From Scenedesmus sp. PABB004 (taxonomy: Eukaryota), in contig JABVCE010000028.1 in NCBI GenBank assembly GCA_014905635.1, positions 372,001 through 436,000 of the forward strand: a stretch of DNA of 64,000 bases, given 5' to 3'. The position numbers were made by a program, and so were the translations under genes. Positions 42,003 to 53,037 of this stretch are shown one piece after another. Every line of letters begins with the position of its first letter. The first letter of the stretch is position 1. The notes under the pieces are model-generated. The model ran no database searches and had not been told where the DNA came from. It saw nothing but the letters and a program-made list of their open reading frames with translations.

Positions 42003-43605
42003 TCAGCGCCGCCCTGCACCGGCCGCGGCCGCCGCCTCGTCGTCGTCGTCATCGTCGTCGTCGTCGTCGCCGCTGCCGCCGCCGCCAACGCTGCCCGCTG
42101 CCAGCACCGGCGCCGCCGCCGGTGCCGCGCCGGCCGCCACCGCGCCGCCGCCCGCCGGGACGACCTCCACCACCTCGACGACCGACACCGTGGTGCAGCG
42201 CCGCACGCACTCCTGCGCGGCGGCGCGCGGGTTGGCCGCACGCGGCGGCGGCGGCGGCGGCGGCCGGGCGCCGCGCAGCCCGATGGCCGCACCTTGGCGC
42301 ACGCCTGCTGCGGCACGTCGACGCACGACTCCACGTCGACCGTCACCTGGCGACAGCTCTGCTCCTCGACCTGCTTGGGCACGTTTGTGCACACATCCTC
42401 ACACACCTGCTGTGTCGCCGGCGCAGCGCTGCTGGCAGGCACGACCGCGGCGGCCGCGGGCGCCGCCGCGGCCTGCTGCTGGCTGTGCGAGTGCACGAGC
42501 GCCGCCGCGCCCAGCGCGAGCAGGGGGAGGAAGTCTGCGCTCTCCCGGCTCTCCTGTCCCGCCACGCTGCCGGCGCCACGCAGCCGCCGCCCGCCCTTCC
42601 CGCCCTTGGCGAAGCTGACCAGTCCCAGCGCGACCGGGCCCTTGCCGGCCGCCGCCGGGGCGGGCGCGGCCACGGCCGTTGTGGCCTCGACCGCCACGGT
42701 TGCGCAACGCCTGGTGCACGCCTGCACCAGCACCGTGCGCTTCACCGTCTCGCACACCTGGCGGCCGCGGCGGCGGAGCGGGCGGCGCGTCGCGCGCGCG
42801 CTCTGCGCGCCTTGGCGCCGGCGGCGCCGCGCCTGGCTGCCGGCGGTCGCCAGCTCTCCGCGGCGCGCACCTGCTTTGTCGTTGGCACTTTCTGGCAGGC
42901 ACGCCCGACCTTGATTACGCACTTGTCCTCACAGACGTCCTTGCACGTGGTCGTGCTCCGCGGCACGGAGCCAGCCGCAGCCGCAGACGCGACCACGGCG
43001 GCCGCGTCGGCGCCCGTCGCCAGCACCTTGGGCTCCGCGGCGGTGGCGCCGAGAACTTCGACCGTCACAGTCGTCTCGGGAGCCTCGGCGCTCTGTGCTG
43101 GGGCGCCCTGGGCGGCGGCTCCTGCGGCGGTGGCGGCGGCGGCCCCTGGCGCGTGGGCTCGTGCTGCTGGAGCAGCCGGGGCGTTGCTTGCCTGGCGCCG
43201 GCCCAGCGCCGCCGCCCGGCCTGGCGCGAAGCTGCGGCGGCGCCCAGCCAGCGGCCTGGCGCGAAGCTGCGGCGGCGCCCAGCCAGCGGCCGCGCGCGCG
43301 CACCGTGCGCCGCCGCCGCGACCAGGAGTGCCAGCGCCAGCGCACGGGGCTGGTTTATTTGGCGCCGTCGCACGGGCCGTTGCGGGCGGGGCAGGCGGGG
43401 CAGCAGTGAGGGCGGGGCGCGGTGCTTCGCGAGATGCTGTCGGAAAGCGCTCGCCCGTCAGCGCGCGGCAGGCCGCTCGTCCCGCTGCGGCCGCGATCCA
43501 CGCCCGACGCAGCGCGACCAGGGCGCGCTTCCCCGCGGCGGCGCGAGCGGCACACCGCGCGCCACCAGCAGCGGCGGCGGCGGCACTCACCGCCAGCCGC
43601 GCCAT
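42003..43605 (-). CDS. Secreted or membrane-anchored Cys/Val-rich protein with a poly-Asp tail, function unknown
   Basis: MARLA|...ALALALLVAAAAHG hydrophobic segment; modules CKDVCEDKCVIKVGRACQKVPTTKQ|VCETV..CTRRC and VCEDVCTNVPKQVEEQSCRQVTVDVESCVDVPQQACAK|ECVRRC; D10 near the C-terminus. Confidence 0.65.
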
Positions 43606-44082
43606 CGCGGGAGGGCAGCGCGGGGCTGCTGGGCACGGTCGCGGAGCCAGCTCGCTGAGGTGTGGCGGTCGGGAGCGGCGCTCGCTGCGGCCCGCTCAGA
43701 GCCTGGGCAGCGCGGCAGGCGCGCGCCGCGCGTCACACTAACGGCGGCGGCCGCGGCGGGGGGGCGGCCGGCGTGTGCGCGCGGCGGCGCCGGCGCTGCG
43801 CGGCCGCCGCTCCCGCGGCGTGGCAGGTACTGGGGAGGGCGCAGCCGGCGCGTGGCGGCCGCACGGCGGCGCGGGCGCGAGGCGCGCGCCTTGACCGGCC
43901 GGCCCTGTCCGCCCGCCGCGGGCAGCGGGCGGCGCCGTGGGGCGGCCCTGCGCCGTCAGAGGGCCGTTCAAACAACGTCTACACCACCAAAATGTGCCGC
44001 TGGTGAGGATCGAACTCACAACCTCCCGCTTACGAAGCGGACGCGCTAGCCATTGCGCCACAGCGGCGCTCGGTGACTTCCG
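43112..44082 (-). repeat. Left arm of a ~0.95-kb inverted duplication (partner 48521-50011)
   Basis: The reverse complement is near-identical to 48521-50011 once the insertion, a 35-bp tandem duplication (43218-43287) and poly-G/C length are allowed for. Confidence 0.95.
43995..44067 (-). tRNA. trnT-CGU: tRNA-Thr(CGT)
   Basis: 73 nt: acceptor GCCGCTG/CAGCGGC-A, D arm GCGC-AATGGCTA-GCGC, anticodon arm TCCGC-TTCGTAA-GCGGG, T arm GTGAG-TTCGATC-CTCAC, followed by TTTT. Confidence 0.96.
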
Positions 44083-44469
44083 GCGCGTGGCGCCGTCGCG
44101 GGCTCTGTTACAGACAGAGGCCCCGCGCCGCGGCACGCGCGCCGGCAATCCAGACAGCACCGTCAAAAACACGTACACGCGCGCCGCCACGGCCTCGCAG
44201 CGCCGACCGACGCGCAACGTTGCGTTCGCGCAACGAGGCCCCTGGCCGGCGGGCCCCACAAAAACGATCAGGCGCCGCCAGCGCGCGCATGCGCTTGCGC
44301 TGGCGGCAGCAGGGAGCCTCCGATGCCCCGGCCCGCAGTGCGGCGCCGTCGCCGCCCCGAGCGGGGCTCGCACAAGGCAAGGCGGCCACCGCCGCCGCAC
44401 GCCCACTCGTGGTTTGTCCGCACACATGCACGACCGCCCAGTGTGCCAACCCAGCAGCGGGCGGGGCCC

Positions 44470-46370
44470 TCACCGCTTGCCGTTGCCGTTGCCGCCGCCA
44501 CCCAAGAGGCTGCCCCACAGCCCGCCGCCGCTGGGCGGCGGCGGCGGCGGCGGCGGCGGCGACGCGCTCGGCGGCCGCGGCGGCTGGCTGCTCGGCACGG
44601 ACGCGGGCCCCGCAGGCGGCGGCGGGCCCGCGCTTGGCGGCGCCGGCGCGGCGGGCACCGGCGCGGCGGGCTTGGCGCCGGCGGCGGGCCCGGGCCCGGC
44701 GACCGCGGCGGCTGGCGCGGCGGGGCCGCGGCCGGCGCTGCAGCGGGGCCGGGCTTGGCGCCAAAGCCGCCAAAGCCCGCGCCCGGCGGCGGCGCGGCGC
44801 TGCGTGCCGGCGCCGCCTTGGGCTTGGGCTTGGGCGGCGGCGGCGGCGGCGCGTCGAGCGAGTCCAGCGCGTCATCGATGCTGTTCTCCAGGCTGCTGCT
44901 GCGGCTGCGCGGCTCCAGGCCCTGCTGCATCAGCTCCTCGTCCCTGCGGCGCGGCGGGCGGCGCTCAGCGCAGCGCGGCCCGCGCGCGCGGTCGCCGCCC
45001 GCCGGCGCGCGTGCGCGCGGCGGGCGTGCCGCAGCGCGCCGCGGGGCGCTCACTGGCGCATGTCCTGGACGAGCGTGTCGCTGAGCTTCTGCATCTGCAC
45101 TAGCTGCATGAAGACATCCTCGTCGGCGGCGCTCAGCGGCACGGCCGACGAGCCTGCTGCACGGCGGCGGCAGCGGCAGCGGCAGCGGTGGCGGCGGCGG
45201 CGGCGTGTCGGCGCGGCGCGTCGCGTCGCGCCGCCCGGCGCCGCGCCGCGCCCGCGCCGCACCCTGCAGGCTCTGGCTCCAGCTGCTGCTCTGCAGCAGC
45301 TCCAGCGCGTGCTCCACGTCGCCGTCGCCCGCGGTGTCCATGCTCGACTTGAGGGCCATGAGGCTGGCCATGAAGGAGTGCAGCTGGCGCTTGGTGCCCT
45401 GCATCTCCGCCTGGATGTCGCTGAGCTCCTGGCGCAGCTTCGCGCGCTCGCGCACGCCGCTCGCCGCGAGCTCGTAGAGCTGCGCGATCTGCATGTCCTT
45501 TGTCTGCACCACGTTGTTGTACGCGCTCTTGCCCTTGAACATCACGTCCTGCGTCTCCGCCAGCGCCGCGCGCAGCGACGTGATCTCCTCGCGCTGCGCC
45601 CTGCGCGGCGGAGCGGCGGCGGCGCGCGCGCGCGCGCGGGCGGGGGCGGCGCCGTCAGCGGCCGGCGCTGCGCGGCGCGCGGCGCGACGAAAGGCGGCGG
45701 CGCCGCGCGCTGCCGCCGCCCGGCGGCGCGCGCCGGCGCCCTCACTGGATGATCGCCGCCTGCTCGCGCGCCTCGCTCTTGGTGATGCCGGCCTTTTGGA
45801 GCTGCACGCTGTCGTTGGTGGAGATGAGCTCCGCGGGCGCCGAGAGCGGGTCGTCGACCTCGATCACGCGCGGCGGCTGCCCGTCCGGCGGGCCCGCCAC
45901 CGTGAGCCGCACCATGCGCCGCTGCTGCTGCTGCTGCTGCTGCTCCGCCTGCGGCGCGCGCGCGTGCGGGCGGCGCGGCGCGGTCGGGCGCGGCGCGGTC
46001 GCTGCTCGCTGCTGCCGCCGCCGCCCCCGCGGCCCCGCGGTGCGCGCAGCTGCTGCTGCTGGCGCTGCGGCGAGCGAGATCGTGCCGGGGCGCACGCCCG
46101 GCGCGTCCAGCACCCGCCAGCGCGCAGGGCTGGGCGGCGAGGGCCGCATCCCCAACGCCAGCCCGCCCACCTGCACGCGGACGCGCAGGCGCCTCCGGGG
46201 CGCCGCCAGCCTGGAGACGGCATCGGGGCCGAGCCGGGGCGGGGCCCCGGCGGCCGCCCGGCGAGCCTGCGGGACGAGGGCACCGGCGGAGCTCGCAGCG
46301 CTCAGCCCGGCACCCGCGCGCCTCGCCCCGCTGCGCAGGCCCGCCACCTGCGCGTGGCCCGCACCTGCAT
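44470..46370 (-). CDS. Coiled-coil protein of unknown function with a Pro-rich tail, possibly plastid-targeted
   Basis: Exons MVRLTVAGPPDGQPPRVIEVDD..EAREQAAIIQ|AQREEITSLRAALAETQDVMFKGKSAYNNVVQTKDMQIAQLYE..|DEDVFMQLVQMQKLSD splice in frame. The 5' end and a frameshift near 44720 are uncertain. Confidence 0.6.
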
Positions 46371-46679
46371 GCCGCCCGGCGCGCGGGGGCGCGGGCGAGG
46401 GCGAGTTTGCGGGCCGAGAGCGTTGGGGGCTATCCGGGCGCGACACGGCCCCCAGGCCACCGGGACGGCGTCGGGAGTGGCGGATCGGGGCAGCGGCGGC
46501 GGCGGCGGAGGCGGTGCGGGCGGCGGCGCAGCAGCGGCGCAGCCGCGCCAAGCCCTGCGCTCCGACGGCCGCGTTCACAGCTGCCGCCGCCACTCCGCGA
46601 CCTCGGCCGGCCGGGCAGCGGGCGCTCTCTCCCGCCGCCGCGGCGCGCCGCAGCTCGCCCAATCGAACGGCCGGCGCCG

Positions 46680-48163
46680 ATGCACGGCACGGAGGACGGC
46701 GCCGCCGCGCCGCCGCGTGGCGCCCGCCAGCCCGCGGCCCGGGCGCGGGCGCCCTTCAAGCCGCCCGGCGCGGCGCCCGGGGCCGCCCCGACGCCGGCGC
46801 TGCTTGCGCCGGCGCTGCTTGCGCCGGCGCCACGCTGCGCCAGCAGCAGCCCGGGACGCGGCGCGCCGCTCGCGCGCGGCGGGGGCGCGCCGGCCGGCGC
46901 GCCTGCGCGCTCGTTCCGGCCGCCGCTGCGCGCGCCCGCGGTCGCCGGCGGGGGCCTCGCCGCTGCTGATGCATGCAAACCGGCGTCAGCGGCGGACCCC
47001 GCAGCGCGGCGCCCGCCAGTCATGCTGCCGGCGCTGCAGGCGAAGCGCCGCAGGCTGGCAGTGCCCCCGGCGGAGCCGGCTGGGTGCCGCGTGGACACCA
47101 GGCCGGGCAGCTTCGCCGCCGCCCCGCCGCCGCCGGCGCAGGGCCGGGCCGCCGGCGGCGGCGCGCAGGCAGCGCCTGCGCCGGCGCAGCCAGAGGCGAC
47201 CGAGGCGCCGGCGTCGCAGGCAGGGGCGCCGGCGCCGCCGCCGCCAGCCGCGCGGCCTCCGCCGCCGGCCGGCCCCGCAGGAGCAGAAGCGGCGCTGCCC
47301 GCGCCAGCAGCGCCAGCAGCGCCGAGCGGCGGCCCGCCGGGGCTGAGCCCCGCCCGCGGCGGCGCTGCGGCTGCCAGCCCAGCCAGCGCCGCGCGCGCAG
47401 GGCGCGGCGGGGCCGCTCCCTGCGAGGCGCCGCCGTCGCCGCCGCCACCGCCGCCGTCGCCGCGGCGGGGCGTGGGGCAGCTGCAGCTCACGCCGCCCGA
47501 CGCCGCGCAGCTGCCGCCCGTCTGGGCCGAGCGCGCGGCGCGGCGCGCGCTGCCCGGCCTGGCCGAGCTCGCGGGTGAGCTCCGCCGCCGCCGCCGCCGC
47601 GCTGCGCTCGGCGCCGCCGGGCGCGGGCCCGTGGACCAGCCAGCGCGCCCGCTGCTCACACCCGCCGACCCCCTCCGCCTGCCGCTCTCTGCCCCTGGCG
47701 CCGCGCAGCCAAGCTGCCGCGGATGCGGCCGCCCGACGAGGGCCCAGCCGCGGCGTCGCTGCTGCCGCCACTGCCGCCGGCCACGACGGCGGCCGCGCAG
47801 CAGGCGGTGCGGGCGCTGCTGCCGCGCAGCCTGGCCGGCGGCGCCGGCGGTGCCGGCGGTGCCCGCAGCAGCAGCAGCGGCAGCGGCAGCGCTTTGGCCC
47901 AGCTCGGCCCCGACGCGCTGCTCCGGCGCCTGCTGGCGCCGGGCGGCAGCTGCCAGGCGGGCGAGGCGGGCTGGCGCGCGCTGCCGGAGCAGCGCGTGGC
48001 GGCTGTGGAGGTGGCGCCCGCGCCGCTCGTGGCCGGCAGCCGCTGCGGCGCGGCCAGCTCGCCCGGGCCGCTGCCGGTCGCGCTGACGGCGCCGGTGGTG
48101 GAGCTGGGTGACGACGAGGGGCTGTTCGCGAGCCTGGCCAGGCTCACGGCGCTGGTGGAGTGA
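46680..48163 (+). CDS. Low-complexity Pro/Ala-rich protein of unknown function
   Basis: ATG 46680, donor GTGAGC at 47575, terminal exon ..LGPDALLRRLL..GLFASLARLTALVE*, and a TGTAA polyadenylation signal near 48240. Confidence 0.5.
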
Positions 48164-48340
48164 CGGCGCGCAGCGCGGCACTCGCAACGCTGCGGCGCGG
48201 CAGAGCTGGCGGGGGGCGCGCACGCGTGGCGCTCTGGCATGTAAATGCAAAGCTGCCCAGGGCGCCGGTGCACTCGGCCACCGCCGCTGCCCGAGCGCCG
48301 TGTGCCCAGCGTGCGCGACCCCGCCACCGCCGTTGCGCAG

Positions 48341-48520
48341 TAGTTTGTTCATTTCATGTTCCTTTTGTGAAAATTGTGTTATTTTTCGCTAAAAAGCGGC
48401 CAGCCGAGAAATTTTCAAAACTTGCCCCGAACTTTTTGCAACCCTTTCCAGGACCAAAAAATGCGTCCTCGGCCAATCTTCATCTTTGCAGTGTGCTGTT
48501 TATATTTGTCCGCTTCAAAG
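48341..48520 (+). promoter_or_regulatory. AT-rich upstream flank of the tRNA with a TATA-like element
   Basis: Abrupt AT-rich island; TTTATATTT about 30-38 nt before the tRNA 5' end, the usual position for plant and algal Pol III upstream elements. Confidence 0.6.
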
Positions 48521-48535
48521 CGGAAGTCACCGAGC

Positions 48536-48608
48536 GCCGCTGTGGCGCAATGGCTAGCGCGTCCGCTTCGTAAGCGGGAGGTTGTGAGTTCGATCCTCAC
48601 CAGCGGCA
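48536..48608 (+). tRNA. trnT-CGU: tRNA-Thr(CGT), identical to the copy at 43995-44067
   Basis: Same cloverleaf; TTTT terminator at 48611-48614. Confidence 0.97.
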
Positions 48609-48646
48609 CATTTTGGTGGTGTAGACGTTGTTTGAACGGCCCTCTG

Positions 48647-49169
48647 TGGCCTGGATTTTTCTGCAAGTGCGGGAGCGTGCCTTGCCCTTTGACGTGGCCC
48701 GAGACGTAGTCAGGCGGGCGGCAGTGAGTGCGTTTTGGGAGGCGCTGGCCGACTTTGCGGCGACCGCTTACGTGCCCCGCGCTGCCCGTACGCCCGACCT
48801 GACGGGCCAGCCCTTTCTGGCTTGGTGCACTCCCCGCGTCGCGGGGAGTGGCTTGGTTGTTATTCGGCGATGAGGATGGTGGCATTCTCCCAGCACTCCC
48901 GCGCGCGCGGGTTGCGCGCTCGCGGGCACGCGCGACCCGCGGTCACCGGCTGCCGCCGACACTGAAATACTGCTACTGCCCAGCAGCGAGCGATCGGTCA
49001 AGGTGTGTGCGCGGAGACAGCACTGAGTGTGTGCAGGTGACGCTTTTGGGCGTGAGCGTGGCCACGGGCGGCAGCTGCGCGTGAGTGACTGACTATACCA
49101 AAGTGATGGGGTCCGTGTTTGCGCCGTAGGCGCTTGTTCACCCCTGGTAACGCCCTTCTTCCAAAAACA
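48647..49169 (+). mobile_element. 5'-truncated non-LTR retrotransposon (L1/Tx1-like ORF2 C-terminus + 3'UTR), 523 bp, 13-bp TSD
   Basis: Flanked by GAACGGCCCTCTG at 48634-48646 and 49170-49182; absent from the paralogous arm; no TIRs or LTRs; open frame ..RRAAVSAFWEALADFAA..GQPFLAW..LVVIRR* (stop 48873); ends CCAAAAACA. Confidence 0.8.
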
Positions 49170-49552
49170 GAACGGCCCTCTGACGGCGCAGGGCCGCCCC
49201 ACGGCGCCGCCCGCTGCCCGCGGCGGGCGGACAGGGCCGGCCGGTCAAGGCGCGCGCCTCGCGCCCGCGCCGCCGTGCGGCCGCCACGCGCCGGCTGCGC
49301 CCTCCCCAGTACCTGCCACGCCGCGGGAGCGGCGGCCGCGCAGCGCCGGCGCCGCCGCGCGCACACGCCGGCCGCCCCCCCCCCCCCCCCCCCCCCCCCC
49401 CCGCGCGCCGCCGCCGTTCGTGTGACGCGCGGCGCGCGCCTGCCGCGCTGCCCAGGCTCTGAGCGGGCCGCAGCGAGCGCCGCTCCCGACCGCCACACCT
49501 CAGCGAGCTGGCTCCGCGACCGTGCCCAGCAGCCCCGCGCTGCCCTCCCGCG

Positions 49553-50011
49553 ATGGCGCGGCTGGCGGTGAGTGCCGCCGCCGCCGCTGCTGGTGGCGCG
49601 CGGTGTGCCGCTCGCGCCGCCGCGGGGAAGCGCGCCCTGGTCGCGCTGCGTCGGGCGTGGATCGCGGCCGCAGCGGGACGAGCGGCCTGCCGCGCGCTGA
49701 CGGGCGAGCGCTTTCCGACAGCATCTCGCGAAGCACCGCGCCCCGCCCTCACTGCTGCCCCGCCTGCCCCGCCCGCAACGGCCCGTGCGACGGCGCCAAA
49801 TAAACCAGCCCCGTGCGCTGGCGCTGGCACTCCTGGTCGCGGCGGCGGCGCACGGTGCGCGCGCGCGGCCGCTGGCTGGGCGCCGCCGCAGCTTCGCGCC
49901 AGGCCGGGCGGCGGCGCTGGGCCGGCGCCAGGCAAGCAACGCCCCGGCTGCTCCAGCAGCACGAGCCCACGCGCCAGGGGCCGCCGCCGCCACCGCCGCA
50001 GGAGCCGCCGC
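49553..50011 (+). pseudogene. Truncated 5' copy of the Cys/Val-rich secreted protein gene
   Basis: Same MARLA|..ALALALLVAAAAHG..ASNAPAAP sequence as the 43605 gene; homology stops at 50011, where it meets the ELYS-like 3' end. Confidence 0.75.
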
Positions 50012-50053
50012 ACCGGCAACCGCCACCGCACCTGCCAAGCGGCGAGGCGCAGC

Positions 50054-53037
50054 TCAGCGGGCGCCCGGCTGGAAGCGGTTGGGCGTCTGCCGCTGCCGCT
50101 TGCTGCTGCGCCGCCCGGGCGTGCCGGCGTCGCCGACCGCGTCCGTGCTGCTCGTGGGCGGCGGCGGCGGCGTGACGGGCGGCGGCGCCGCGGCGCGGCC
50201 GCCGCGGCCGCCACGCGCGCCGCGCGCCGGCGTGGCGCCGCCGCCGCCGCCGCCGCCGAGGCCCAGGACCTCCCTGCCAAACTCCTCCTCGCTCATCATC
50301 AGCCCCAGCCCCGCGGGCGTGTCGGCGGCGCCCGCGTCGTCGCCGCCGCCAAACAGCGCGCCGCCGCCGGGCGCGCCAAAGAGCAGCGGCACGTAGTCGG
50401 TGCCGCGCCCCGGCGCGTCGAGCGGCACCGCGCCGGGGCCCGCCTCGGCGCGCACCTCGGCGCCAAACAGCGAGCCCGCCGGCGCCCACGCGCCGGCGGC
50501 GGGCGCCGCCGGCGGCGCGGCGCCCGCGGCGCCCAGCGGCGGCGGCGGCGCGTCCGCGTCCATCGCCGCCGCGCCGCCCGCCGCGGCGGCGCCGTCGCCG
50601 CCGTCGCGCGCCGCCGCGGCGGCCTCCGCGAGCGCCTCTGCGCCTGGGCCAGCGACGAGGGGGCCCATGAACACCGGGGGCTCCACCCCGCGCTGGCTGA
50701 GCGTGGCCGCCGCCGGCTGCGCGCCGCCGCCCTCCTGGCCGGCCAGGCCGGACAGCACCGGCCGCGGCGCGGCGCCGCCGGGCCCGCCACGGCCGCGTCG
50801 CGCAGCGCCGGCGGCAGCGCCGCGGCGGCGGCCGACATGAGCGTGTGCAGCTGGCGCTGGAGCAGCGCGCCGTCGCGGCCGTCGGCGCCGCCGCCGGCCG
50901 GGCTTGCGACCCACTCGCCGTAGCTTGCCAGGGCCTCCAGGCTGCGCCCGCGCTGCGCGCGCAGGGGGGCAGCGACGGCGGCGGCGGCGGCGGTCAGCGC
51001 GCGTCGCGCTGCGCGGCAGCGCCGCCGCCAGCAGCCAGCCGGCCAGGGCGGCGCCCCGTGGCGCACCTGCAGATAGAACAGGGCCAGCGCGTGCCCGCCC
51101 GGCTCCCCGGCCGCGAGGCGGCCCCGGAACCACGCGACCAGCGCCGCCTCCTCGGCGGCGTCCCACGGCAGCTGGCAGAGCTGCTGCAGCCGCGCCGCGC
51201 CCGGCGCGCCGCCCCGCCCGGCCGCCTCGTCCGGCTCGGCCGCCCACGCGGCCAGCTGGTGCGTGAGCGCCTGCACGTGCGCCCAGCGCTGGCCGGGCGG
51301 CACCTGGGACCGGCAACGACGGGGCGGGCGGGCGGGCGTGGGCGAGCGGGCGGGGCGCACAGGCCGCGCCGCGCGAGGCTGCGCCGCCCCTGACCGCGCC
51401 GCCCAGTCGCGCGCACCCGGCCGCAGTGCCGCCGCAGCTCCGAGAACGCCTCCGCGAGCAGGCCGCAGCCGAGCTGCACGTTCAGCAGCACCTGCATCTC
51501 CGCGAGGCTCACCCCGCCGGCGCCGCCCGCGAGCGCGCCCGCCGACGCCGCGCAGCGCGCGCGCTGCACCGCCAGCGCGGTCGCGGGCCGCCCGGCCGCC
51601 AGCAGGGCTTCGACAAACCTGCGCGGCCGGGCCGGGCGGCGGCGTCTGGCGCCGCCGGCGGCCCCCGTCTGGCGCCGCCGGCAGCCCCGCGGCGCCTGAC
51701 CCTGCCCTGCCGTGCCGCACCTGAAGGGCGTGGCGGGGCCCGAGATTGCGCAGAGCAGCCCACACGCGGCGTCCAACGCGCCGCCGCCGTCGGCGCCCTC
51801 CGCCGCGGCGGCGTCCATGAGCTGCGCGGCCTCCCACTGCTGCGCCGTCGTGAGCGGCAGCTGCAGGCCCTGCGGCGCCGGCGCGGGCGGCGGACGCCGG
51901 CGCGGCCCTGAGCGCCCGCCGCGCCCGCGCCCTGGGCCAGGGCCGCGCGGCGCGCGCGGCGCGCGCCGTGGGACCGCCGGGGCCGTGCCCCGCGCGCAGG
52001 CGCGCGCGCGGGCGCGCGCCTGCGCGAGCGGCGCGCAGCTCTCCAGCCAGCCGCCGTCGAGCAAAAAGTAGGCGAGCACGGCGAGCTTGGCGGCCCACGC
52101 CTCGGCGCCGCCGGCGCCGCGCGCAAAGAGCCAGTCGAGCGCGGAGAGCACGTCGGGGAAGGGGTAGGCCAGGCCGCCCTGCCCGGGGCTGACCGCGGCG
52201 AGCGAGTCGAGCAAGTCATCCAGGAAGAGCCGGGCGCCGGGCAGGCGGCGCCGCGCGGCCGCGAGGCCCGCCGCCCAGTCGGCGGCGGCGGCGCCGCCGC
52301 GGCGCGGCGCGCGCGCGAGCGGGCGCCGGGCGCCGGCCGGCCGCGCGAGCAGCGGCGCCTGGCCGGGGCGCTGCTCCTGGAGCTGCTCCAGCAGCTGCAG
52401 CACGCGCGCCGCCTGCTGCAGCAGCTGCAGGCGCTCGGCCAGCGCCTGCGCCGCGGGCTGGCTGCGGGGCGGGTCGGCGCGGGGCGCGGCGGGGAGAGGG
52501 CGACGGGATCAGCGCGGCGTGGTCGCAGCCGCGGCTGCGGCGACCGCCGGGGCCGCCCCCTCTGCGCCAGCCCGCGCCGCCGCCGCCCCCGCACCTGGGG
52601 CCGCCGGCGGCCGCGACCGCGCGCGCGATCGCGAGCAGCGTGGACGTGGCGTGCTCCAGCTCGGCCGCAAACTCGGCGCCCTGCGCCGCGCCGGCGAAGA
52701 GCGCGTCGACGCGGCGCTGCAGGCCCTCGACCGCGCCCTCCGCCCACGCGAGCACGCCGCCCGGCGCGAGCAGCGCGGCCTCCTCGGGGCAGGCCGACGT
52801 CACGCCCTCGTCGGCGCAGACACAGGCGACCCAGTCACAGATCCACGACCCGAGCCGCGCGTCCAGCGCCGCGCTCAGCAGCGCGTGCAGCTGGCCCGCC
52901 AGGCCGCCGTCGGCGCCCGCCGCCAGGCCCAGGCGGCCGCACAGGGACGCGAGCCAGGAGCGCAGCGGCTCGCCCGCCCGCAGGCCCGACAGCGGGACGT
53001 CCACCAGCGCCGCCTGCAGGCGCAGCGCCGCCGCCAT
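50054..53037 (-). CDS. ELYS/HOS1-like nucleoporin-domain protein
   Basis: LFLDDLL..AYPFPDVLSALDWLF..AKLAVLAYFLLD, ALLAAGRPATALAVQRA, LGCGLLAEAF, LCQLPWDAAEEAALVAW and LALFYLQRGRSLEA resemble the ELYS domain of plant HOS1. Confidence 0.7.

Follow-up and report, generated by a model that had tools for sequence, protein, structure and literature searches.

The window analyzed here, a stretch of 64,000 nt (64 kb) that contains no N, has a G+C content of 79% across its length and carries eukaryotic genes with introns, identified by Pfam as NPC1-like, TPR/GT41, ODR4-like, ING, TLDc, CRIPT and Y-family polymerase genes. The Pfam scan of the window covered 89 stop-to-stop frames with a minimum length of 340 aa, and no reverse transcriptase (RT), endonuclease or transposase domain was found among these frames. 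ARAGORN detected exactly two tRNA genes in the window, which are identical to each other and both encode tRNA-Thr(CGT). An Rfam search of positions 43000-50200 returned the two tRNAs and otherwise only sub-threshold chance matches. The two genes lie on opposite strands in the arms of an inverted duplication (Table 1), and the 126 nt around the minus-strand gene are 100% identical to the other copy. When the segment 48647-49182 (the insert described below plus one 13-mer) was left out, the alignment of the two arms contained 937 matches, 4 mismatches and 54 gap columns. The arms first differ in aligned column 319; the preceding 318 columns, which hold the tRNA, its trailer and the target, were identical. 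With 4 substitutions in 941 aligned bases, the inverted duplication is judged to be young. The region upstream of the tRNA copy with the insert is AT-rich and TATA-like, a feature that is absent from the paralogue. Directly after the plus-strand tRNA-Thr gene follows ATTTTGG, and its T4 run (48611-48614) is likely the Pol III terminator.

Table 1. Positions of the tRNA genes, duplication arms, target sites and parts of the insert, numbered from the first letter of the window
Feature	Position	Strand	Basis or remark
Left arm of the inverted duplication, tRNA gene at its inner end	43107..44082	-	Repeat analysis; arm alignment
Empty target site in the paralogous arm (single 13-mer, no insert)	43957..43969	-	Sequence, arm alignment
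Paralogous tRNA-Thr(CGT)	43994..44067	-	ARAGORN; Rfam, 67.8 bits
Right arm of the inverted duplication	48521..50016	+	Broken only by the insert and one 13-mer
tRNA-Thr, anticodon CGT, with the insert downstream	48536..48609	+	ARAGORN; Rfam RF00005, 67.8 bits
Left copy of the 13-bp target-site duplication GAACGGCCCTCTG	48634..48646	+	Sequence, motif search
Last 75 codons and stop of a LINE ORF2 (predicted)	48647..48873	+	Homologous to P0154 residues 1351-1409
3′ UTR, 288 nt (predicted)	48874..49161	+	98.8-100% identity with metagenome copies; ends ...CCCTTCTTC
Copy-specific 8-nt tail CAAAAACA	49162..49169	+	Between element end and duplication
Right copy of the 13-bp target-site duplication	49170..49182	+	Sequence, motif search

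The plus-strand tRNA-Thr gene is followed by an insert of 523 bp (48647-49169), which begins about 37-38 nt past the last base of the tRNA, lies on the same strand and is enclosed by two copies of the 13-mer GAACGGCCCTCTG. In the entire window, this 13-mer starts only at 48634 and 49170 on the plus strand and at 43957 on the minus strand. The minus-strand paralogue runs through uninterrupted (...GACGTTGTTT GAACGGCCCTCTG ACGGCGCAGG...) with one 13-mer and no insert, and the empty site can be written as GACGTTGTTT|GAACGGCCCTCTG|ACGG. This paralogous empty site serves as an internal control, and both boundaries of the insert are therefore fixed to the base without recourse to chance statistics. 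As the insert is missing from the paralogous arm, the insertion is younger than the duplication. The G at 48646 is common to the duplication and the element, which corresponds to a 1-nt microhomology at the 5′ junction. The repeat analysis of the window reported neither TIR nor LTR around the insert. A preliminary description of this DNA had already proposed a 523-bp insert with a perfect 13-bp repeat and a paralogous empty site, located 3′ of the tRNA-Thr gene in the orientation of the tRNA, starting in the middle of an ORF and lacking TIR or LTR. The motif search and the arm alignment, together with ARAGORN and the sequence itself, bore out this anatomy.

The G+C content of the insert is 65%, compared to 79% for the window. 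An open frame enters the insert from its left edge, reads ..AAVSAFWEALADFAATAYVPRAARTPDLTGQPFLAW..RR* and stops with the TGA at 48871-48873. For the region behind this stop, a 3′ UTR of about 295 nt had been proposed; its place was correct, but its extent was refined to 288 nt plus an 8-nt tail, as the part in common with other copies of the element ends at 49161. The tail CAAAAACA contains only five A's and is not poly(A); it could be a short 3′ tail of the A/CA type, or its bases could be untemplated. The A-rich end (AAAAACA) had also been read as a sign of target-primed reverse transcription (TPRT), for which it is a weak argument, since none of the four other copies described below has an A run after 49158-49161. 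Folding of the 3′ UTR as a single sequence was no better than that of shuffled sequences (z of -0.83; 41 of 200 shuffles were as good) and gave no support for a conserved stem-loop.

The 74-residue peptide encoded by the insert was compared by phmmer to 1.84 billion representative proteins. This search yielded 35 matches at E<=1e-3, including 7 at E<=1e-10, with a best E value of 1.2e-11, and nearly all of these proteins align with the insert peptide at their final residues. The nearest proteins are metagenomic and show 45-64% identity in this tail. A word-indexed protein search with the 74-aa peptide scored no longer protein; this is weak evidence, and the exhaustive HMMER search did find relatives. 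Ten of the 35 phmmer matches were scanned against Pfam. RVT_1 exceeded the cut-off in two of them (P0018 with 971 aa and 97.4 bits; P0007 with 811 aa and 44 bits), while zf-RVT was seen upstream of the common tail in seven, always below the cut-off (17.6-25.9 bits versus 27.5), and three of the ten lacked any Pfam family. A search with P0018 returned 403 relatives, many of which have a length of 1400-1430 aa and carry precomputed PF03372 (APE-type endonuclease) and PF00078 annotations. Few relatives are named, and these originate from Scenedesmus sp. PABB004 (with the automatic name "LINE-1 retrotransposable element ORF2 protein") and Volvox.

The full-length relatives P0036, P0038, P0042 and P0067 (4/4), as well as P0154, combine Exo_endo_phos, RVT_1 and zf-RVT. 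Exo_endo_phos was present in all five proteins and above the cut-off in four (P0042 reached 21.5 bits versus 24.5), RVT_1 scored 95.8 bits in P0154 and 92.1 bits in P0036, and zf-RVT was found in 5/5 but never up to the Pfam cut-off. P0154 (1409 aa) stems from the cluster of one of the best phmmer matches. Its last 59 residues are identical to the insert peptide at 35 positions (59%; pairwise E of 3e-18), and 15 columns are invariant across the tail in alignment A1. When nine relatives were compared to the window by tblastn, seven matched, exclusively at 48646-48870, and two gave no match; the insert is the only LINE-like piece that was found in the 64 kb by this approach. Among solved structures, P0036 is best matched by human L1 ORF2p (8sxt), with an E value of 1.3e-36 over residues 115-851, whereas R2 proteins reached only ~1e-11. 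One related locus (L003) displays an ORF1-sized frame upstream that overlaps the start of ORF2. Judged by this homology, the insert is the last ~5% of an L1-type ORF2 plus the 3′ UTR. The earlier suggestions of a LINE and of a resemblance to chlorophyte ORF2 C-termini are thus supported: ORF2 proteins that bear an RT match the peptide at their C-terminal end, the nearest named relatives come from Scenedesmus and Volvox, and the LINE call had been tied to the existence of an RT-bearing parent or another copy, of which RT-bearing relatives as well as further, longer copies were found. APE and RT were seen only in these relatives, whose C-termini are 45-64% identical, and the fragment itself ends before the RT.

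Near-identical sequence was detected in public freshwater metagenome runs, with 17 rows containing part of the insert and 8 containing at least half of the sampled words. Contigs of four runs from four studies (X1, X4, X7 and X17, the last being the only one taken from the runs with small word shares, X9-X17) were aligned to positions 48300-49500, and the metagenome copies were 98.8-100% identical to the insert. The X1 contig (1133 nt) spans 48646-49161 with 3 differences, and the X4 contig (642 nt) spans 48646-49158 with 6 differences. Beyond 48646, both contigs share the next 30 letters, and these do not resemble the tRNA trailer of the window. Translated by hand in the frame of the window, these letters read AIHACERGRR before VAW, and 8 of the 10 residues are identical to VIHAFERGRR(AAW) of P0002, VIHAFERGRRAAW. 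X1 and X4 therefore continue the ORF2 frame in the 5′ direction, which shows that the copy in the window is 5′-truncated. The longer copies of the family were traced only for these 30 nt beyond the 5′ break. The common 3′ end lies at 49161 in X1, X7 and X17 and at 49158 in X4, and the four 3′ flanks behind it (TTCTGAG.., GATTTTT.., TTTCTGC.. and CCCCGCA..) are all unrelated. Four copies with four different 3′ flanks make this a multi-copy family, which is young and appears to have been active recently. As the 3′ flanks all differ, the copies have no target sequence in common. In the metagenomes, the flanks come from the ends of contigs of unknown organisms, and assembly paths could account for them.

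X17 is a metatranscriptome, and its 184-nt contig spans the UTR into the flank; this documents the presence of the element in an RNA library and is not proof of transcription. In the four runs, no contig crosses the junction between the tRNA and the insert, and the regions 48300-48545 and 49285-49500 had no cover, which says nothing about the source organism. Matches of 35-41 nt inside the tRNA (4 mismatches) represent tRNAs of other organisms. An exact 28-mer of the 3′ UTR had 0 matches in JGI metagenome contigs. Based on alignment A1, five related loci were found in metagenome contigs and one in genome contigs, and none in viral contigs. These six loci are 1.3-6.7 kb long, have a G+C content of 50-54% and are mostly element-only contigs of distant families. 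A 44-nt stretch in L002 was the only DNA similarity between these loci and the insert. They contain 0 tRNA genes, which, in short element-only contigs, carries no weight on targeting either way.

We consider it likely that the insert is a severely 5′-truncated copy of a recently active, multi-copy L1-type (APE+RT+zf-RVT) LINE of a very GC-rich green alga, which was integrated by TPRT after the duplication and whose adjacency to the tRNA gene is most likely passive. L1 is established to move by TPRT and to duplicate its target; its copies are frequently 5′-truncated and show microhomology where the 5′ end is joined. The footprints of TPRT at the locus are the 13-bp duplication with its empty site, the existence of copies that are longer at the 5′ end and the lack of terminal repeats. 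From this anatomy, the following course of events is proposed. After duplication of the tRNA-bearing segment, the endonuclease would have cut the bottom strand across from GTTT|GAAC, at a distance of 24 nt from the end of the tRNA and past the T4 run. The first nick is assigned to the bottom strand at this position because the 3′ end of the element abuts the downstream copy of the 13-mer. Reverse transcription would then have been primed at the nick from the 3′ end of the RNA, and its early stop would have produced the truncated copy. The cDNA may have been joined at the 1-nt microhomology (G), 13 nt downstream, at a top-strand nick, and gap filling would have generated the 13-bp duplication.

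The L1 LINEs of green algae, such as L1-1_CR of Chlamydomonas and Zepp of Chlorella, which are listed in PMC3472496, constitute the comparison group. As in these elements, the relatives of the insert have an ORF2 of ~1400 aa that begins with an APE at the N-terminus, followed by RT and a zf-RVT-like region, and closes with a conserved C-terminal tail, with which the insert peptide aligns. Like them, the insert is 5′-truncated and has a 13-bp duplication, and it carries no regular poly(A). Table 1 of Ohshima 2012 (PMC3472496) gives (A)n for 2 of 15 green-algal L1 families, other short repeats ((CA)n/(CAA)n-like) for 8 and none for 5, and the lack of poly(A) in the insert fits these entries, as 13 of the 15 listed families have none. 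The element ends in ...CCCTTCTTC with variable additions, which is none of the repeats given in that table. By the architecture of the relatives, the footprints and the nearest named relatives, the family would be a new and unremarkable addition to the green-algal L1 LINEs. For a place in L1 proper rather than in Tx1 or another clade, the evidence consists of the best solved match, human L1 ORF2p, and the automatic names of relatives.

Among solved structures, human LINE-1 ORF2p (8sxt, 8uw3, 9k6g and 8c8j) is the best match of the relatives, extending from the APE through the RT. The match ends at query residue ~860, and the C-terminal tail of the relatives has no counterpart in the human protein. 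The insert also differs from human L1 in having no long poly(A) tail and in its nick site, which would be GTTT|GAAC (top strand) here but is of the TT|AAAA type in human L1. The Tx1 lineage, too, falls within the L1 clade if this is taken broadly, and it is linked to small-RNA genes, and some of its LINEs (Dewa) sit in tRNA arrays. Tx1 elements insert in one fixed sequence, whereas the 3′ flanks of the five copies all differ here.

In its geometry and in the ORF2 of its relatives, the insert resembles Dictyostelium TRE3, which is also L1-type, has an APE-RT-zinc-finger ORF2 and inserts downstream of tRNA genes and in their orientation, as described in sections of PMC5911963 and PMC5006619. According to the TRE3 section of PMC5911963, this element inserts 40-150 bp downstream in the same orientation. 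Table 1 of PMC5006619 gives distances in the range of 14-305 bp, lists 60 of 67 Dd_TRE3-A copies with distances, and points to an association in essentially all copies. In contrast to this near-universal association at mostly 40-150 bp, there is one copy here, located 24-37 nt away. By analogy, the position of the insert could result from active, Pol III-directed targeting, in which element proteins would recognize TFIIIC/TFIIIB or the B box and direct insertion downstream in tRNA orientation; tRNA genes would then serve as safe harbours in a gene-dense, GC-rich genome. We regard this scenario as unlikely. It would account for the observation that the sole copy with a visible 5′ flank lies 24 nt (nick) to 37 nt after a tRNA, on the same strand and past T4, and that no other LINE piece was found in a 64-kb window with just two tRNA genes. 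The copy that was hit is also the one with the AT-rich, TATA-like upstream region, which the paralogue lacks, and this fits a preference for an active gene. Under uniform insertion, the chance of such a position is ~0.1-0.3% per insertion (two tRNA genes with 40-100 nt each in 63.5 kb), for a case that was chosen as striking. However, this is a single insertion (n=1) that was selected for its interesting look, the paralogue of the tRNA gene carries no insert, and in the four other copies the 24-30 nt of 3′ flank that can be seen contain no pointer to a Pol III gene. The absence of a tRNA from 6/6 loci of relatives counts little, as these are short contigs of distant families.

A bias that is driven by sequence can yield the same position as Pol III targeting, and the location next to the tRNA gene most likely does not reflect active targeting. 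The endonuclease may have an L1-like preference for a T-run/purine-A site; such sites are very rare in DNA of 79% GC and concentrated in the few AT-richer intergenic patches. Such patches include the trailers of tRNA genes, and insertions could be funnelled there without tethering. An insertion past the Pol III terminator would be harmless and hence tolerated. Stretches of 60 nt with a G+C content of <55% make up 4.4% of the window and form 27 patches, two of which are the tRNA trailers. The motif TTT[AG]A occurs at 38 sites on both strands of the pre-insertion window and TTTGAA at 6 sites, and for either motif 3 sites lie no more than 60 nt from a tRNA gene; the nick motif derives from one junction, and these counts are post hoc and illustrative.

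That the insert is no LINE insertion at all is very improbable. A chimeric assembly, a non-autonomous element such as a SINE, or a deletion that gave the paralogue the look of an empty site could be invoked because the filled tRNA-insert junction is unbridged by the contigs of the four runs and because the fragment itself lacks RT. Both the perfect duplication of 13 bp and the exactness of the empty site disfavour a chimera or a deletion, and the homology to ORF2 C-termini is significant among 1.84 billion proteins. The longer copies continue the frame, as expected for a truncated autonomous-type element rather than a SINE, and neither a tRNA-like nor any other Rfam match was found inside the insert. 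Hardly credible is a sequence-specific insertion of the Tx1 type, i.e., into one fixed target that happens to lie in the tRNA-Thr trailer: the Tx1 lineage is placed inside the L1 clade and described as target-specific in PMC3472496, and within the window the target 13-mer is confined to the two tRNA trailers, but 0/4 of the other 3′ flanks start with GAACGGCCCTCTG or resemble one another and the identical paralogous target is unoccupied, so that a fixed target sequence is contradicted.

Regardless of its position, the insert represents a clean, textbook case of a recent 5′-truncated L1-type insertion with an internal empty-site control in an unusually GC-rich eukaryote. In the section of a 2018 review that deals with this mode (PMC5911963), targeting downstream of tRNA genes is ascribed only to dictyostelids, and full-text literature searches revealed no algal or plant case. 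If the tRNA association were true, it would mean that Pol III-gene targeting had arisen independently among retrotransposons for a third time, and for the first time in the green lineage, and it would set Pol III tethering against the scarcity of AT-rich nick sites. A green-algal L1-clade LINE with an independently evolved, TRE3-like integration downstream of tRNA genes and past the terminator is nevertheless improbable on the present evidence. We treat tRNA targeting as a weak lead and regard the passive explanation as more likely. The idea that base composition alone could funnel LINEs into tRNA flanks is testable and of mild interest. For practical purposes, the insertion is useful for annotation and as a dated marker that is younger than the duplication (4 substitutions/941 bases). 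The empty-site arrangement was also observed in a 159-nt X4 contig, which could represent either a paralogue or an empty allele.

The two tRNA-Thr(CGT) genes lie in the arms of a young inverted duplication (see the table), with one gene located at the inner end of each arm. Alignment of the arms revealed 4 substitutions in 941 compared bases and 54 gap columns, which fell mainly at simple G/C runs. Gene conversion may contribute to the similarity of the arms. One homopolymer measured C28 in the right arm (49375-49402) versus C7 in the left arm (43770-43776). This difference is an effect of homopolymer instability or of assembly in extremely GC-rich DNA; in the window there are eight further homopolymers of G or C, with lengths of 12-21 nt.

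Location of the inverted duplication and of intron-split genes in the window
Feature	Position	Remarks
Inverted duplication, young	arms 43107-44082 and 48521-50016	arm ~960-976 bp; spacer 4.4 kb
NPC1-like gene	18.5-23 kb	
TPR/GT41 gene	28.6-35 kb	
ODR4-like gene	57.6-59.9 kb	

Immediately 5′ of the plus-strand tRNA-Thr copy lies the AT-richest stretch of the window (48312-48556; GC per 60 nt as low as 0.30), which was not covered by any contig in four metagenome runs. It contains TTATATTTG, located ~30 nt 5′ of the tRNA gene, and two small hairpins (CGCTAAAAAGCG and CCGCTTCAAAGCGG). Since the duplicated segment begins just 15 nt 5′ of tRNA-Thr, the upstream region of the minus-strand copy is GC-rich, unlike that of the plus-strand copy. 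Their Pol III promoters may therefore not be equally strong.

Sequence from the family of the LINE fragment inserted in the right arm is present in an RNA library, possibly as a result of read-through transcription of another copy of the family. A contig of the metatranscriptome run X17 matched the end of the 3′ UTR (49002-49161) with 0 differences and then continued into a separate flanking sequence (TTTCTGCC...). In chlorophycean algae, TGTAA is the usual poly(A) signal. This motif was found in the spacer at 48240-48244, ~290 nt 5′ of the plus-strand tRNA-Thr, and a TGGTAA located 10-15 nt ahead of position 49161, at the LINE's own end, could represent a variant of the signal.

The G+C content of the insert (65%) is much lower than that of the surrounding window, which averages 79% over 64 kb. 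The window is nuclear DNA of a eukaryote and carries genes split by introns, comprising DUF6687, TLDc, ING, CRIPT and Y-family polymerase genes in addition to those listed in the table. Almost all frames are open over hundreds of codons; 149 stretches without a stop reach a length of 250 aa or more.

A distant relative of the LINE makes up essentially the whole of a 5.4-kb contig (L006; APE-RT ORF2 of L1 type, 51% GC) that is stored under a genome bin titled uncultured Synechococcus. It shares 99.7% identity with a JGI metagenome contig (L003, 1393-6640), and its occurrence in the Synechococcus bin probably reflects eukaryotic contamination of a bacterial MAG.
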